A DNA stretch of 64,000 nt from a virus (taxonomy: Duplodnaviria > Heunggongvirae > Uroviricota > Caudoviricetes): IMG/VR virus record IMGVR_UViG_2675903538_000004. One strand, given 5' to 3'. Position numbers and translations under genes: made by a program. This document shows, in pieces, positions 34,531 to 39,177 of the stretch (its first letter is position 1; each line of letters opens with the position of its first letter). A model generated the notes under the pieces. It was not told the origin of the DNA and did no database searches. It worked only from the letters and a program-made list of their open reading frames with translations.

Positions 34531-35574
34531 TTATCTAACGCTCGACGAATGACTTGTGATAGCGCCGACTCCAAGCGCGTAATCAAAGAACAATCGTTGA
34601 TGCATCGCCAGCCTACCGTGCGTCTTCTCCCAATTATCGCGGTCACGCTCAATATCACGCTGGCATGACTGGCACAGAGGAACAGCATAAATGTCATGCG
34701 CGCATAATCGACTATGACGAACGATATAAGGCGTAATGTGAGCGCCAGCTCCCGCAGCTCCACAGCCACAGCATGGACGGGAAGCCACAAAATCCATGTA
34801 CTCGGGCAATTTTAGCGATTGAAGTTTTGGTATTTTGAAATGCGCCATGCCAGGGTCGGCGTCAACATCCACAGGGCATACTTTTGCACGCATCGGCGCG
34901 GCGCGTTCTTCCATCATCTGAACATATGCTGTAGCGCGATCGTCATACGGGCGAATATCCGCCTCTTTCAGAGGTCCGCTATCCTGCGGAGTAGCCTTCA
35001 TCTTATTTATTGATATGCGGCAGACTTCTTCCGGCATCAGGTGCATCATGTTGCGCATGAAAGCCCACCAGCACAGCTCCTGAATACTTAAATCATGGCT
35101 ATTTGAAAGGCCCATTTCCTGACGGGCGACATCCAGTATCCAGTTAACGCGATTATTGTGCAGCGTTTCTTTCAGCTCATTAAAACCACGCATCCGGTAA
35201 TGGTTATCGTGATGCCAGCACAACAACACCGCGCTATTGTCTCGTTCAGCGTGGACAATATGGTTGTCACACCAACTACGATCTGCGGCCTGGCATTGAC
35301 CCTCTTTCCTACGCAACCACGCCACCAGCGCGTCAATTCCACCAATACGGCGAAACAGTTCATCGCTGTTAAAAAACGGCTGCAACGCCTCATTTGTTGC
35401 CATGGTTTGCTCGGTAACAACGAGGCCGTCTTCCATGTGCTCGATTAACTCACGCGGCACCGGCTCCATAATAAATTTACGGCCAGCCTCCACCAGCTTT
35501 CTGACCTCCTGATCCACTTTGAACGTGGCGAGGCCAAGCTCTTTCTGTACAAAGGGAGTAATTACGGCTTTCAC
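34531..35574 (-). CDS. hypothetical Cys/His-rich protein
   Basis: 347 aa; CWHHDNHY and CCGCG..CxxCQ motifs. Confidence 0.55.
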
Positions 35575-35785
35575 ATCACACCTTTAATCACTGATTGGGC
35601 TTTATCTGCTGCCCGGCATTCTCTGTTTAAGCACAACCATTTCCTGACGGCATAACACAGCAATAGCGGTCCTGACTCCAATTTGCTTACCAACCAGGTA
35701 TTGCTTTACCTTGCGGCGACTCACGCCATCAAGAAGCATCTTTAACGCTTCACGGGACAATTTGTTGTATTTGCGTGCCATTAAT

Positions 35786-36166
35786 CTACTCCGCAGAACC
35801 ATACAATCTACGTAACGTGTCGGCGACAGAAGATACAGATATCTCGCCAGTCGCAGCGCCTACAGTAAGGTCTGCCAGTTCAGGTGAATCAAATACCTGC
35901 ACCCCGTTACGGCGTAGAAATAGCAGCGCACTGTTTAGCGCGGTACGCTTATTGGCATCATTGAATATATGCCCTCTCGCTGTAGCCACCAGGTAGGTGG
36001 CGGAGACTTCGAAAAGGTCGGTGATCTCTTCGTAGGCAACTCTGGCCTGAACTCTCCCGATAATGGCCTCTGCCCTACCCGGATCAGACATTCCCGGCAG
36101 GCCGCCGTAGCGGCTTATATTCGCATCATGAAGCGCAATAAGTTCTTCCGGTGATATATGCCTCAT
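35786..36166 (-). CDS. doc: Doc toxin (Fic-fold kinase)
   Basis: 126 aa [33 protein letters not shown]. Confidence 0.95.
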
Positions 36167-36387
36167 TATCGGTTAACCAGTTCCTTGTTGGTGGAGTCCA
36201 GGGTGTCAAACAGGGATGCAAATTCAGCATCCAGCGCCGCTTTTTTGTAGGCTTCGAAAGTAGCCTTGCTGACAATTACTGCTGGCTCACGGCCTCTGCG
36301 GGTGATTTCAACCTCTTCCCCGGCTTCAACATTGTTGAGCACTTCAGAAAGGTTGCCACGCGCGGTACGGAAGTTAATGGATTGCAT
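36166..36387 (-). CDS. phd: Phd antitoxin
   Basis: [49 protein letters not shown]; ATG 36387 after GAGGTG; stop overlaps doc start. Confidence 0.95.
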
Positions 36388-36459
36388 AAACACCTCGTGT
36401 ACTCGTTATGTGTACACAATTATAAACTTCACAGGCATAAAGCACCAGCACTTTGCAGC

Positions 36460-36849
36460 TTAAATAACCGGACAATCATCAAATTCCCCACTTCGGGCAT
36501 CATTGATGACATGAGTGATCACACCAAAAACAGCATTACTGCCCGTGTATCCATCGTCATCTACTGGTAACGCCTCTTTCTTCCCGGTGCTTAAATCCTC
36601 CAGGTGCTGGCGCGGATACTTCCTGTATCTCTTTATGCGATATTCACCCTCCATAGCGCACACAAGCAGAGAACCATCAACCGGAGTAAGCGAGGAATCA
36701 ACCACCAGCAAAGCACCCTGCAATATTCCCTCACGGTGATGGCTATCAGCTGCCCGCATGAAGTAGGTCGCTGAAGGATGTCTAATTATCTGCTGATCAA
36801 GAGAAATTCGGCTTTCAACATAATCCGCCGCAGGAGAAGGGAAGCCCAT
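36460..36849 (-). CDS. humD: UmuD-like protein (HumD)
   Basis: 129 aa, S24 peptidase-like C-terminal domain lacking the N-terminal cleavage arm (UmuD'-like). Confidence 0.8.
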   Translation of the reverse strand: MGFPSPAADYVESRISLDQQIIRHPSATYFMRAADSHHREGILQGALLVVDSSLTPVDGSLLVCAMEGEYRIKRYRKYPRQHLEDLSTGKKEALPVDDDGYTGSNAVFGVITHVINDARSGEFDDCPVI

Positions 36850-36972
36850 AGCGTTTTACCTCAATGATACTGTTTATTCATACAGTATACATTGAAAAGG
36901 CATAGTTTGTGAAAGCGGGGTTTGTAGGCGCGCCACGCTGGGGGCTAATCACATTTCTCCCCCATCTTGCCG

Positions 36973-37245
36973 TTATTTTTTTGGTGCATCCTCGTTCTGA
37001 TACACCGGATCGCTCCCTTTTGGCAACTGGAGGCTTAACTGCCGATAGTGCCGTAACCGTTCCATGAAATAGGTGCGCAGATTCTCTGGTTGCTCGCGGG
37101 CTACCTGTTCAGCTATGACAGGTATGTTCAATCGCTCTTTGTACGCCACACCGCTGGCAGCCAGATCAACGTTAACCTTATCCCGTTCTTCCTGACTTTT
37201 AGCTGCAATATTCCAATCGTGCATATCAAATCCCATCCAGAACAA
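36973..37245 (-). CDS. hypothetical protein
   Basis: 90-aa ORF. Confidence 0.4.
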
Positions 37246-37673
37246 TTGCGTAACGACTATTATTTAACCAGCAAAGTAACTTTTAATTTTTTTTCTTTTC
37301 CCATTGATTTTTGTGCACAGCTTATCTGCCTTGCCGTGCGCAGAATCAACTTTTTTCTTCCTGATTTATCCACAAAGTTATGCACTTGCAAGAGGGCCAT
37401 TTTCTAAATATTGTGATGTTTCACAAATGAAATGAATTTTGATTAATGAAGATAAGGAGAAAATTTGAGATGCAATCATGACGTTAATAGATAGGGTCTG
37501 CATTACAGACCCCATCCGCATCAAGGAATTAGCCGTTCCCTGATGTTGTTCCGAAAACATGTGCCGTAAGCTCACGTTAACGACTTTCTTTCACCGAATC
37601 CAACTATATAGGGGTTGGGTTTCTACGTCAACGTGAGCAAGTGCTCCTTTACATTTGACAAGGAACCACCTTA

Positions 37674-37811
37674 ATGACTGCTTTTTTTCAGTTCCTGAGT
37701 GCATTTTTAGATGCGCCTGTTATTAGCCAGATTCTGGCGATCATCCTCATCATCGTTTTGATTTTGCTTTTAAGGTCAGTAAAAAATGGAATTATGCACT
37801 GGCTTACTTAA
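37674..37811 (+). CDS. small hydrophobic peptide (45 aa), candidate membrane toxin-like ORF
   Basis: MTAFFQFLSAFLDAPVISQILAIILIIVLILLLRSVKNGIMHWLT; weak AGGA upstream; lies in a 640-bp region without larger ORFs; below ORF-track size cut-off. Confidence 0.3.
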   Translation: MTAFFQFLSAFLDAPVISQILAIILIIVLILLLRSVKNGIMHWLT

Positions 37812-37885
37812 TGTTCAGTGAAACATTAAAATCTCCTTGATGTGGAAACAATCATTTTCTGTATGTGCTGGTGGGTACCTGTAGT

Positions 37886-38248
37886 TCAGCTTTCGTTGGC
37901 ATTTAACTTCGTCTTTGCTTTCTCCACCAGCAACTTCCAGATGCCTATTTCATTAGCAGCCGCCTTGATGGCGGCATAAAAAGCATCTTGCTGATCGTAA
38001 CGCTGAATCTGTTTTTTCAGTTTTGCCTCCACCAATTTAATTTCATTACGTGCTTTCTGAAGCCGCAGCGCCGCCCGGTTACGTCTGTTCTTGTATAGCG
38101 CGTTAATCTCTGATAATTGCTTTAATTTACCAGCCTGACTGCGGATTATCGCCTCTCTGACTTCTGCCGTGCGTCTCATCTGATCTCTTAAGAGTTCACC
38201 GTTTTCGATAATTCTTTCAAGGTGTTTGATGTGATCTGCAACTCTCAT
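37886..38248 (-). CDS. coiled-coil protein
   Basis: 120-aa ORF. Confidence 0.5.
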   Translation of the reverse strand: MRVADHIKHLERIIENGELLRDQMRRTAEVREAIIRSQAGKLKQLSEINALYKNRRNRAALRLQKARNEIKLVEAKLKKQIQRYDQQDAFYAAIKAAANEIGIWKLLVEKAKTKLNANES

Positions 38249-39177
38249 ACTTCACCCTCGCTTGTATCGCCAGCATCCACCAGCGGCAATAAAGCCCTGG
38301 CCATCTTATGAACCAATAGTGCATCAATAATGCCAAGCGTATGCCCCGGCTTAATGTTTAATGCCGCCTCAAGGTGACACCTTTCCAGGCCACTTTTCTC
38401 GGCTTGTTTATGATGATCTGGTGTAATAACGTCGCCCAAAACACGGCTAATTCTTTCTCGTAATTGCTGGGTGCCAGCACACTTGATCGCTGTATCGTGG
38501 AGACGGTTAACCAGTTCGCGATAAACATGCGGCTTAATTCGGATACGTTCACCGGTGACGCCCTTTCCTGGTGCTGGCACCGAACTATCCGGAATATCCG
38601 GATAGTTGCCAGCCTCGTAAGCTACCCGCAGCCAGTGCATGAATGTTTCAGTGGACACACAACCACAGTCCACATCGATTTTCCCGCGTTGCTGTTCCAG
38701 CCATTGCCCAAAATCCAACCTGTAAGTCTTACTTTCAAGTTCATCACCATTGAACTCGACTTTCTGCGACGCTATGAGAGCTGATTCGTATTGTTCGCGA
38801 GTGACAACTGACTGGTATTCATCGCTATCAAGGTCACCAATTGGAAGCTCAATCTCACAACAAAAATTGCGCCCAAAGAAAGTGTCTTTTTTGTGGTCTG
38901 AGCCAAAAGCAAAAGTCGCGCATGGTGCCATTAAATTGACACTGGGTAGGTAACAATAACTCATTCCATCAGGCCACCCGCCGCACTTAGGCAGTTCCTT
39001 CACTAACAAGTCGATAAACTTCATTTTTTTATCATCTTTGCAAGCCGCCAAAGCCATTTGGGCAAGTGCCAATACTTCATCTGCCGTATATCCAGCACCG
39101 TGACCATACATTTCGATACGGGAAATAATCTCTGATATACGCTCTTCAGTGATTCTGGTCATTTCTTTTTGCGCCAT
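38245..39177 (-). CDS. hypothetical protein
   Basis: 310-aa ORF, overlapping stop/start with neighbours. Confidence 0.55.
   Translation of the reverse strand: MAQKEMTRITEERISEIISRIEMYGHGAGYTADEVLALAQMALAACKDDKKMKFIDLLVKELPKCGGWPDGMSYCYLPSVNLMAPCATFAFGSDHKKDTFFGRNFCCEIELPIGDLDSDEYQSVVTREQYESALIASQKVEFNGDELESKTYRLDFGQWLEQQRGKIDVDCGCVSTETFMHWLRVAYEAGNYPDIPDSSVPAPGKGVTGERIRIKPHVYRELVNRLHDTAIKCAGTQQLRERISRVLGDVITPDHHKQAEKSGLERCHLEAALNIKPGHTLGIIDALLVHKMARALLPLVDAGDTSEGEV

Follow-up and report, generated by a model that had tools for sequence, protein, structure and literature searches.

A conserved accessory cassette of P1-like phage-plasmids with a possible type I toxin-antitoxin-like organization

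The DNA analyzed here (the window, 64,000 nucleotides) is a P1-type phage-plasmid, and the feature under study is a 640-bp gap in it, at positions 37246-37885. Comparison with other genomes showed that this gap is a self-contained accessory cassette, confined to P1-like elements, in which a leader block and a short ORF for a hydrophobic peptide always travel together. With a probability that we put at about one half, the cassette is a new type I toxin-antitoxin-like module, in which the toxicity of the peptide and the antisense transcript are putative.

Setting and distribution of the cassette

The gap has a GC content of 0.37-0.43, compared with 0.45-0.53 in its flanks, and the longest ORF within it does not exceed 65 aa, which bears out the AT-rich stretch without large ORFs described in an earlier note on this DNA. 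The same note placed the gap next to the humD-side genes, and this part requires correction for the immediate left neighbor, which is hot; lxr, located between humD and hot in P1, is missing from the window. The late promoter of hot, LPhot (formerly LP91; minus strand, 37259-37282), has a mapped start site in the P1 and M95666 annotations and lies outside the cassette. This region of the genome is one of the eight hypervariable regions of P1-like plasmids (PMC9603915). In P1, phd-doc is found close to the cassette.

The same block was found in 229 plasmids and 13 phages, all of them P1-like. Amongst 5426 complete E. coli genomes, 216 carried the cassette, and 222 of its 223 places were plasmid-borne, compared with 598 genomes carrying pacA of P1; about two thirds of P1-type elements are thus without it. 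The sequences fall into four clades (P1, P7, D and E) with differing flanks, where one side consists of pmgV, hsdM, H-NS or hypothetical genes and the other of hot or IS903; in P7, the cassette is kept and hot is replaced. Searches of the cassette DNA against 401 Enterobacteriaceae genomes returned chance matches of 23-54 nt only, scans of viral contigs recovered members of the P1, P7 and D clades only, apart from a chance match (L088), and an invariant 20-mer had no match in the genome contigs scanned.

Conservation is unevenly distributed along the cassette. Between P1 and clade D, identity is 90% in the block 37451-37640 and 72-80% in the peptide ORF; between clades D and E, it is 88% in codons 1-33 of the ORF and 83% in the RNA block. 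The left edge of the conserved block is marked by a variable spacer (37421-37450), in which clades differ by indels of 13-19 nt and P1 is 37-43% identical to D and E.

The membrane-peptide gene and its folded leader

A 45-codon plus-strand ORF with a predicted transmembrane helix had been pointed out in the earlier note, and it is present at 37674-37811 with exactly the peptide quoted there (MTAFFQFLSAFLDAPVISQILAIILIIVLILLLRSVKNGIMHWLT). Kyte-Doolittle hydropathy averages 3.3 over residues 16-33, and the AlphaFold2 model (mean pLDDT 86) consists of a helix at residues 2-13, a kink at Ala14-Pro15 and a second helix at residues 16-44; together, hydropathy and model fit a single transmembrane helix. 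With a GRAVY of 1.6 and 42-45 codons, the ORF is of the small (less than about 60 aa), hydrophobic kind that is expected of type I toxins.

Conservation of the ORF across P1-like genomes, proposed in that note as a check, is seen in all four clades, where the frame is open over 45, 45, 45 and 42 codons and all five other frames contain stops. Codons 1-33 are free of indels, and a 20-nt deletion in clade E alters the tail only. For these codons, dN/dS between P1/P7 and D/E is 0.31-0.37 (0.45-0.49 for the full-length ORF), and the N-terminal 33 residues, including the motif FQFLSxFLxAP, are conserved beyond mere hydrophobicity. Three further tests were not significant: codon-position bias of substitutions in the ORF (counts 11/8/12), a simulation of ORF survival under random placement of the P1-to-D changes (P open 0.13) and a test of hydropathy retention. 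The coding signal from substitutions alone is modest to weak.

The ORF is annotated as a hypothetical protein in JL22 and in many RefSeq plasmids, and some assemblies carry variants with frameshifted tails (P0001-P0004). A word-based protein search returned two truncated variants, and six hits came from a profile search of 1.84 billion representatives. Five of these were variants of the same locus, one of them revealing clade E. The sixth (P0006, E 6e-5) was rejected, being a repeat protein that matches the C-terminal tail only. Pfam, NCBIfam and PHROG scans of the peptide gave noise only at E <= 10, and no significant match to the PADLOC anti-phage defense profiles was obtained.

Upstream of the ORF, the plus strand carries a leader of about 250 nt with four helices (H1-H4). 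The leader fold comprises 43 pairs with 96.6% of cells paired, and in a covariation sample of four clades only, two-sided (compensatory) changes occur at 3 pairs, compared with 1.1 +/- 0.6 in shuffles, 5 of 500 of which reach 3, and with 0 in slid controls. Translation signals lie in the leader at 37454-37543: a Shine-Dalgarno sequence (SD1, AAGGAG, 37454-37459), an AUG at 37470 that begins a mini-ORF (AUG CAA UCA UGA in P1 and P7, AUG UAA in clades D and E) and a 21-codon ORF at 37478-37543, to which the mini-ORF is coupled or adjacent. SD1, both leader AUGs and their spacing are invariant across the four clades. Changes in the 21-aa leader peptide are mostly non-synonymous, and therefore translation of the leader, rather than its product, would be what matters. 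In clade E, the leader frame continues into the peptide ORF and yields a 106-aa product (P0005).

The earlier note had singled out a hairpin at 37494-37512 (H1), which is present on the plus strand as GGGTCTG-CATTA-CAGACCC, with 7 bp and the loop CAUUA. Its pair 37497/37509 is U-A in P1 and P7, a compensatory C-G in the diverged clade D and an A.A mismatch in E; an extension of H1 is not conserved, and the hairpin can form on both strands. The following helix, H2 (37519-37545), combines an inner stem GGAAU/GUUCC (37525-29/37535-39) with an outer CAUCA/UGAUG and a loop with a UUNR motif. The A-U pair at 37527/37537 is G-C in clade E, again a compensatory change, 37529/37535 goes from U.G to U-A, and the stem is retained while the loop bases vary. 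Between H2 and the next helix, alignments and consensus fold place an unpaired linker (37546-37569) containing the 20-nt sequence CCGAAAACATGTGCCGTAAG, invariant in all clades, which may be a candidate RNA-RNA contact or ribosome standby site.

The rest of the leader fold is a composite helix at 37570-37638, in which H3 (37570-82/37626-38) surrounds H4 (37596-605/37613-22). H3 shows a compensatory change from A-U to U-A in clade E, C-G to U.G in D and G-C to G.U in E, and H4 shows C-G to U.G in E and three G.U pairs common to all clades. In a minus-strand RNA, the wobble pairs of H3 and H4 would turn into mismatches, and it is thus the RNA of the plus strand that folds. Two long-range pairings, GGAGAAA (37456)/UUUUUUC (37684) and an alternative GAUAAGGA/UCCUCAUC inside the ORF, are not relied on here, as their pairs are invariant or changed on one side; one of the two is broken in clade E.

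The start of the peptide gene lies in a hairpin of its own (37652-37676, plus strand; CAUU...AAGG(AACCA)CCUU AAUG), which in the consensus fold holds both a second Shine-Dalgarno sequence (SD2, AAGGA, 37660-37664) and the start codon (37674-37676). P1, P7 and D5 retain this hairpin; in D6 and E, part of it remains. SD2 itself is AAGGA in P1 and P7 and GAGGA in D and E, located 8-9 nt before the AUG in every clade despite differing surrounding bases and a 1-nt indel; the pairing of CAUU with (A/G)AUG is likewise retained, with a change from U-A to U.G. At the other end of the gene, the consensus fold contains a stem-loop across the stop codon (37808-37829, UUAAUGUU/AACAUUAA), with one compensatory pair (U-A to C-G) and one G.U that is valid on the plus strand only. 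It is not a canonical terminator because no U-tract follows it, and a search of the locus for intrinsic terminators of the sense or antisense RNA found none.

Promoters, transcription and a predicted antisense RNA

The sense promoter region begins with two plus-strand DnaA boxes, TTATCCACA (37366-37374) and TTATGCACT (37378-37386), neither of which varies between the four clades; in the annotations of P1 and M95666, 37366-37386 is marked as 'nrdA-like promoter' with 'dnaA box'. Positions 37366-37404 are identical at 38 of 39 positions to a segment 94-162 nt upstream of host nrdA, which was found in 5426 of 5426 E. coli chromosomes, and the cassette copy is oriented towards the ORF as the chromosomal one is towards nrdA. 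By this sequence match, the DnaA boxes and the -35 element are copied from the E. coli nrdA promoter. The predicted sigma-70 promoter of the peptide mRNA (37386-37414, plus strand) consists of the -35 TTGCAA (37386-37391), a 17-bp spacer and the -10 TATTGT (37409-37414). As in the host promoter, the two DnaA boxes abut the -35, and the -35, spacing, orientation and distance to the -10 all match. The -10 reads TATTGT, TACTGT or TAGTGT depending on the clade, with T1, A2 and T6 constant. The promoter matches the consensus at 8 of 12 positions, which is below the scan threshold, and transcription would start at about 37421-37423. A TTGACA at 37655 was considered as a plus-strand promoter right before the ORF and was dismissed for want of a -10; inspection by eye revealed neither a LexA nor an NrdR box.

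Within the leader, a near-consensus sigma-70 promoter (TTGACG-17-TATAGT, 37603-37631, minus strand) points left and appears in the P1 annotation as the predicted 'PupfN'. It matches the consensus at 10 of 12 positions with a 17-bp spacer; six such 10/12 sites, two of them with a 17-bp spacer, occur on both strands of the window (128 kb searched). Both hexamers are invariant in the four clades, and the neighboring positions 37611-12, 37623, 37632 and 37634 vary. An antisense RNA from this promoter would start at about 37594-37597. With its extent set equal to that of the conserved block, the predicted cis-antisense RNA covers 37451-37596 and would be fully complementary to the leader. Folding of this segment gave z = -4.3 (P1), -3.7 (P7), -3.6 (D) and -2.1 (E) for the minus strand, and z = -1.9 (window), -2.4 (D) and -1.4 (E) for the plus strand.

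The cassette region is transcribed in lysogens, as observed in unstranded RNA-seq contigs. In four runs of one study (lysogen-type), contigs with a depth of 73-135 extended from 34616 to 37941, 38001, 38059 or 38259. After the contig end, nothing was covered until 38288-38452 in runs X3-X5, and the stretch of run X2 ended at 38500; the cassette was covered at high depth in these lysogen-like strains and the adjoining pmgV was uncovered. The ragged right end of the contigs, together with the finding of no promoter-like site in 37780-38420, fits plus-strand run-off from the cassette and not read-through from pmgTUV. The 2026 raw-read RNA runs were devoid of P1 and yielded reads of the host nrdA promoter only, and the P1vir RNA-seq literature examined does not mention the locus.

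Type I toxin-antitoxin-like reading and its alternatives

The earlier note compared the layout with type I toxin-antitoxin loci or small phage membrane effectors. The comparison with type I loci holds for the architecture, which is more complete than the note could tell and comprises a membrane peptide preceded by a conserved SD, a folded and covarying upstream RNA and an invariant antisense promoter; it does not extend to membership of a known family, as neither peptide nor RNA matches one. If the cassette works in this manner, a weak nrdA-derived plus-strand promoter, with its two DnaA boxes and -35, would give an mRNA whose leader of about 250 nt folds as H1-H4 and includes a mini or leader ORF behind a conserved upstream ribosome-binding site, while a hairpin would occlude the SD and AUG of the peptide gene. 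The mRNA would encode the single-helix membrane peptide of 42-45 residues. The much stronger, conserved promoter within the leader would produce, in the opposite direction, a structured antisense RNA perfectly complementary to about 37451-37596, and its pairing with the leader may block leader translation or ribosome loading, or lead to cleavage of the duplex, so that the peptide is kept off. A drop in the antisense RNA, through plasmid loss or a stress that shifts the balance, would then allow the peptide to be made, to enter the inner membrane and to cause cell arrest or death.

A more far-reaching version is speculative and, in our estimation, rather unlikely. It holds that the cassette represents an unrecognized type I family of P1-like phage-plasmids, whose toxin mRNA is placed on a captured host ribonucleotide-reductase promoter with DnaA boxes, that the toxin potential is gated by host DnaA and replication status, and that cells would be arrested or killed upon prophage loss, replication stress or super-infection, as a second RNA-based addiction or abortive module beside phd-doc. 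Two points count against a type I reading of the cassette, namely that P1 already possesses phd-doc nearby and that, to our knowledge, no second addiction function of P1 has been reported. Should the cassette prove to be a type I system, its toxin and RNA would form a new family, there would be a clear example of a mobile element that has taken over a cell-cycle promoter of its host, and residual stability or exclusion phenotypes of P1-like plasmids would have a possible explanation. Such plasmids are now important in carrying resistance genes in both E. coli and Salmonella, and about 4% of the complete E. coli genomes contain the cassette. Although P1 ranks as a textbook phage, with phd-doc as the paradigm for plasmid addiction, its reference genome shows this 0.5-kb stretch with three minus-strand ORFs that probably do not hold up in comparison; the re-annotation and the conserved structured RNA would be useful even if the peptide is non-toxic.

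The alternative that we take most seriously, while considering it unlikely, agrees with the 'small phage membrane effector' of the earlier note: the lysogen would make the peptide as a genuine small protein of the inner membrane that is not toxic and that might modulate a host transporter, sensor kinase or protease, take part in exclusion or affect cell division. DnaA-box promoter, folded leader and antisense RNA would then adjust its synthesis, with no toxin-antitoxin behavior. All of the architectural evidence applies equally to such a protein, many enterobacterial single-helix proteins of 30-50 aa are regulators rather than toxins, the N-terminal conservation exceeds what hydrophobicity would require, and a DnaA-tied promoter suggests physiological regulation over simple post-segregational killing. 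What speaks for a harmful product instead is the combination of a strong constitutive antisense promoter with a weak sense promoter and occluded initiation, which would be typical silencing of such a product, the location in an accessory hypervariable region beside phd-doc, and the frameshifted variants in some assemblies, as are often seen with toxic genes. Still less probable, and doubtful in our view, is a functional product that is a non-coding RNA transcribed from one or the other strand of 37451-37640, with a trans or cis mode of action and with an incidental or weakly constrained ORF. The greater P1-D conservation of this block than of the ORF would be explained, the covariation of the structure is the strongest statistical signal, and the coding tests were individually non-significant; however, all four clades retain the ORF start, its stop (or a new stop), the SD and the spacing, even with indels close outside the ORF, codons 1-33 are better conserved than the RNA block between D and E, dN/dS is 0.3-0.4 with the other frames closed, and block and ORF are inseparable.

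Two further readings appear very improbable. The P1 reference annotates the minus-strand ORFs upfO (37260-37400), upfN (37378-37575) and upfM (37591-37704), and were this annotation, which P7 shares in GenBank, correct, PupfN would express these proteins together with hot; the promoter does face upfN, upfO and hot, and the region is transcribed. In clades D and E, however, indels disrupt the frames of upfM and upfN, the P7 upfN is extended to 102 aa, and the shared segment of upfN shows non-synonymous changes only, which coincide with those of the RNA pairs; in addition, hot has its own mapped late promoter and is replaced in P7 where the cassette is kept, and modern gene callers choose the plus-strand ORF. 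Probably, none of upfM, upfN and upfO is a gene. Knock-down has shown upfN and upfO to be non-essential (PMC10695390). Equally remote is a DNA-level element, with the RNAs and ORF as by-products; its DnaA boxes and inverted repeats would bind or titrate DnaA, or control replication or partition of the plasmid prophage. P1 plasmid replication does depend on DnaA and the two boxes are perfectly conserved, but changes of the G.U type are meaningful in RNA only and conservation reaches 400 bp past the boxes, with promoter-like and SD-like logic. Because the cassette is missing from about two thirds of P1-type elements, a core replication function does not apply.

Returning to the type I toxin-antitoxin-like reading, one close precedent is hok/sok (mok) of plasmid R1, in which a weak toxin promoter gives a long folded mRNA with an occluded toxin ribosome-binding site, an upstream leader frame supplies translation, and a strong cis-antisense RNA targets this leader, rather than the toxin start, to control a membrane peptide of about 50 aa. 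The cassette resembles it in being plasmid-borne, with a weak sense promoter, a folded mRNA, a putatively occluded ribosome-binding site, a leader ORF, a small membrane peptide and a predicted antisense RNA to the leader. Unlike in hok/sok, the peptide is without conserved cysteines, neither peptide nor RNA matches the Hok/Gef (PF01848) or Sok profiles, leader ORF and peptide ORF are free of overlap (clade E, with its in-frame fusion of the two, being the exception), no 5'-3' closing helix is supported, and the promoter was captured from host nrdA along with its DnaA boxes.

Other systems share single elements with the cassette; profiles of Ldr/Rdl, TisB/IstR-1, Ibs/Sib, ShoB/OhsC, ZorO/OrzO and DinQ/AgrB matched neither peptide nor RNA, and an Rfam search of 36000-39000 at E <= 1, which included Sok, hok mRNA, Rdl and C4, returned no match. 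In ldr/rdl of E. coli, the 5' UTR is long and the toxin start lies far downstream of the part of the 5' UTR or leader that a cis-antisense RNA covers, as is predicted here for a similarly small hydrophobic peptide; the differences are a single copy on a phage-plasmid compared with a chromosomal repeat, 45 aa compared with the 35 aa of Ldr, and a longer predicted antisense RNA of about 146 nt. The toxin mRNAs of tisB/istR-1 and zorO/orzO are inert through 5' UTR structure, and their antitoxin RNAs act not on the SD but on a standby or loading site some 80-200 nt ahead of the toxin start. The cassette would likewise rely on 5' UTR structure and an upstream antisense target, but those antitoxins are divergent with short complementarity, whereas the antisense RNA predicted here is fully overlapping, and tisB is LexA-controlled whereas the sense promoter here carries DnaA boxes. 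An antisense RNA regulator also exists elsewhere in the genome of the same phage, where the c4 RNA of ant (immI), unrelated in sequence, is released by processing of the transcript that also contains its target and affects the translation of ant.

Distribution and genomic setting of the cassette

The earlier note had described an AT-rich gap (37246-37885) containing stable hairpins and a 45-codon plus-strand ORF, and all of these were found at the coordinates it gave, with a GC content of 0.37-0.43 in the gap versus 0.45-0.53 in the surroundings. The region shares 99.0% identity with phage P1 (NC_005856, 85802-86703, reverse strand) and 96% with P7, the latter from window position 37336 rightwards. 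The conserved accessory cassette within the gap was confined to P1-like elements of Escherichia, Salmonella and Shigella, with 13 phage and 229 plasmid records, and was also carried by 52-54 IMG/VR contigs. It occurred in 216 of 5426 complete E. coli genomes, where 222 of its 223 places were plasmids. No real match was obtained in 401 Enterobacteriaceae species genomes, nor any match to an invariant 20-mer of the cassette across one genome per species. Of those 5426 genomes, 598 had P1 pacA; thus, the cassette is accessory and resides on roughly one third of P1-type elements. Its site is one of eight hypervariable regions of P1-like plasmids (PMC9603915).

Four sequence clades were distinguished: P1-type, P7-type (~97.5% identical), D (90% identity in the conserved block, 58-60% in the peptide) and E (~80% identical). 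The right flank varies by clade, being pmgV, type I restriction hsdM, a hypothetical gene or an H-NS gene; the left flank is hot, replaced in P7 by other small ORFs and IS903. The unit shared among these settings runs from the DnaA boxes (37366) to slightly beyond the peptide ORF (~37830). The most diverged copy, in clade E, adjoins hot on contig L079 (1-12321), an element that also bears VgrG-like, VRR-NUC-like, TsiV-family immunity and H-NS genes and was not found in the phage and plasmid collections searched.

The minus-strand genes of the window run doc, phd, humD, hot, without the lxr that P1 has between humD and hot. In P1, lxr is a 573-bp LexA-regulated gene, and the humD-hot distance is 754 bp there and 124 bp in the window (36849-36973); among clade D plasmids, lxr is missing in some and retained in others. 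A promoter-like minus-strand site at 36913 (TTCACA-18-TATACT, 10/12) is presumably the humD promoter.

Predicted opposed promoters and a predicted folded leader

The plus-strand segment 37366-37404 matches, at 38 of 39 positions, DNA that every E. coli chromosome carries 94-162 nt ahead of nrdA. Its orientation is that of the nrdA copy, and it contains two DnaA boxes and a -35 element, TTGCAA. The older record M95666 annotates a plus-strand 'nrdA-like promoter' with a DnaA box at 37349-37404. At the nrdA distance, the predicted -10 reads TATTGT, TACTGT or TAGTGT depending on the clade, with T1, A2 and T6 kept. The predicted sense promoter is weak by consensus (8/12) and directed at the peptide ORF. 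This captured DnaA-box promoter is the unusual feature of the cassette. Transcription of nrdA follows DnaA and replication status, and by analogy the copy suggests that sense transcription of the cassette may do the same.

After an indel-rich variable spacer (37421-37450), the conserved block (37451-37640) opens with an invariant AAGGAG (SD1, 37454-37459), 10 nt and an AUG. This AUG starts a mini-ORF (P1 and P7, AUG CAA UCA UGA; clades D and E, AUG UAA). Overlapping it or directly adjoining it is a second invariant AUG, the start of a 21-codon frame across helices H1 (37494-37512) and H2 (37519-37545). Changes in the peptide of this frame are mostly non-synonymous. In clade E the frame continues in frame into the peptide ORF, and it was through the resulting 106-aa gene call (P0005) that the clade came to light, in a full HMM search across 1.84 billion protein representatives. 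Five of the six matches were variants of the cassette locus; the sixth (P0006, E 6e-5) aligned through the C-terminal tail alone, in a repeat protein.

The block also carries H3 (37570-37582/37626-37638) and H4 (37596-37605/37613-37622). Across ten sequences, nine of them distinct, the 43 proposed leader pairs were 96.6% paired, with three double-sided changes (H1 U-A to C-G, H2 A-U to G-C, H3 A-U to U-A); shuffles gave 1.1 +/- 0.6, 5 of 500 reaching three, and no slid control gave any. Single-sided changes in H3 and H4 were C-G to U.G or G-C to G.U, and H4 has three constant G.U pairs. These wobbles would be mismatches if read on the minus strand, and an RNA from the predicted antisense start would not include the 3' arm of H3, which is upstream of that start; therefore, H3 and H4 argue for a folded plus-strand RNA, which implies, from these substitution patterns, plus-strand transcription through the conserved block.

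The best promoter match in the region, TTGACG-17-TATAGT, faces the other way (37631-37603, minus strand). Across both strands of the 64-kb window, six sites match at 10/12 or better, and this is among the two of them that have a 17-bp spacer. Both hexamers are invariant in the four clades, amid neighbouring positions that vary. The predicted antisense RNA would begin at about 37595 and cross the unpaired linker (37546-37569), H2, H1 and the upstream ribosome-binding site. This promoter together with ~146 nt downstream of it makes up the conserved block, and the minus-strand fold of that downstream segment (z = -4.3, -3.7, -3.6 and -2.1 in P1, P7, D and E) is stronger than its plus-strand fold (z = -1.9, -2.4 and -1.4 in the window, D and E). 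No terminator for the predicted RNA was evident.

Transcription across the region

Public RNA-seq runs containing the locus provided unstranded contigs. Four runs of one study (X2-X5) had patchy prophage coverage, as expected of lysogen RNA, with one contig at depth 73-135 running from 34616, a strain-specific junction, through doc, phd, humD, hot and the whole cassette, and neighbouring prophage DNA at 0-15. Right ends fell at 37941, 38001, 38059 or 38259; in X3-X5 coverage was zero from there until 38288-38452, and the stretch examined for X2 ended at 38500. No promoter-like site was found in 37780-38420 on either strand. Together with the coverage gap, this indicates that the cassette is transcribed while the upstream pmgTUV operon is silent. 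We infer from these unstranded contigs that the ragged right end is better explained by unterminated plus-strand run-off than by a minus-strand start at a defined site. In a different study, the contig on the right of the nrdA repeat stood at 15-43% of the depth on the phd-doc side.

In lysogen-type contigs overall, the block from doc/phd to hot and the cassette (34616-38000) reached depths of 45-300, by far the highest within the 20 kb of prophage examined (0-15 elsewhere). The 39-bp nrdA copy is a repeat between plasmid and chromosome, and it is the point at which many assemblies, of RNA as well as DNA, break off or branch, their loose ends entering the chromosomal nrdA leader; RNA-seq contigs and reads from P1-free strains branch there too. 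A G+C-rich minus-strand hairpin with a weak T-tail (38332-38350), within the pmgT/pmgU coding region, lies near the ends of high-depth contigs in two runs (38301-38317).

The peptide ORF and readings of the cassette

The peptide ORF (37674-37811) follows a hypervariable decamer (37639-37648), which lies just before its initiation region. Its Shine-Dalgarno (SD2, 37660-37664), AAGGA or GAGGA, stands 8-9 nt ahead of the AUG in all clades, a spacing retained despite a 1-nt indel and altered neighbouring bases, and is predicted to lie in a hairpin in which the AUG is paired as well. In the P1, P7 and D clades the ORF is 45 codons long, against 42 in clade E, where a 20-nt deletion swaps the tail and a new stop follows; the other five frames have stops in every clade. 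A 3' stem-loop spanning the stop codon (37808-37829) contains one compensatory pair. AlphaFold2 modelled helices at residues 2-13 and 16-44 with a kink at Ala14-Pro15 (pLDDT 86). The ORF lacks annotation in the P1 and P7 records and is named a hypothetical protein in phage JL22 and many RefSeq plasmids.

In the mechanism that we propose, a weak sense promoter would drive an mRNA whose long folded leader would bear an upstream ribosome-loading site or leader ORF, and the peptide ORF, with an occluded initiation region, would encode a small membrane peptide; a convergent promoter of much greater strength would yield a structured antisense RNA fully complementary to the leader. By analogy, this predicted layout is a type I toxin-antitoxin design, and we put the probability that the cassette is a toxin-antitoxin module at about one half. 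Closest to it are hok/mok/sok and ldr/rdl, in which the leader is the target of the antisense RNA; also close are tisB and zorO, where the RNA works at a site well upstream of the toxin start. No matching model was found in Rfam, Pfam, NCBIfam, PHROG or PADLOC and, judged by sequence, the cassette is not a member of any of these four families.

The same regulatory cassette with a non-toxic membrane regulator as its product is a distinctly less probable reading, and an RNA-only element, a DnaA element acting at the DNA level and the reference annotation are less probable still. In favour of an RNA-only element, the codon-position counts (11/8/12), the ORF staying open (chance 0.13) and hydropathy retention are each non-significant alone; against it, codons 1-33 have zero indels, a dN/dS of 0.31-0.37 (P1/P7 versus D/E) and, between clades D and E, 88% conservation versus 83% for the RNA block.

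The reference annotation, if correct, would place the content of the gap on the minus strand: the P1 record lists the late promoter LPhot (37259-37282), three predicted promoters and three small ORFs of unknown function, upfO (37260-37400), upfN (37378-37575) and upfM (37591-37704). The frames of upfM and upfN are shifted in clades D and E, upfN measures 102 aa in P7, and changes in its shared part are exclusively non-synonymous and fall at the same sites as the RNA pair changes. On this comparison, the reference ORFs are probably artefacts that go back to the strand chosen in 2004. When upfN and upfO were knocked down by CRISPRi, as in an earlier deletion survey, the region was found to be non-essential for lytic growth (PMC10695390).

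Some public assemblies encode frameshifted versions of the peptide with changed C-terminal tails (P0001, P0003, P0004), and in P0002 it is fused to other sequence after residue 31. Such versions could stem from slippage, from errors in sequencing or from the inactivation of a gene that does harm. The P0001 shift is located in the A-run GTAAAAAATGG, whose A6 run spans 37779-37784 (codons 36-37).
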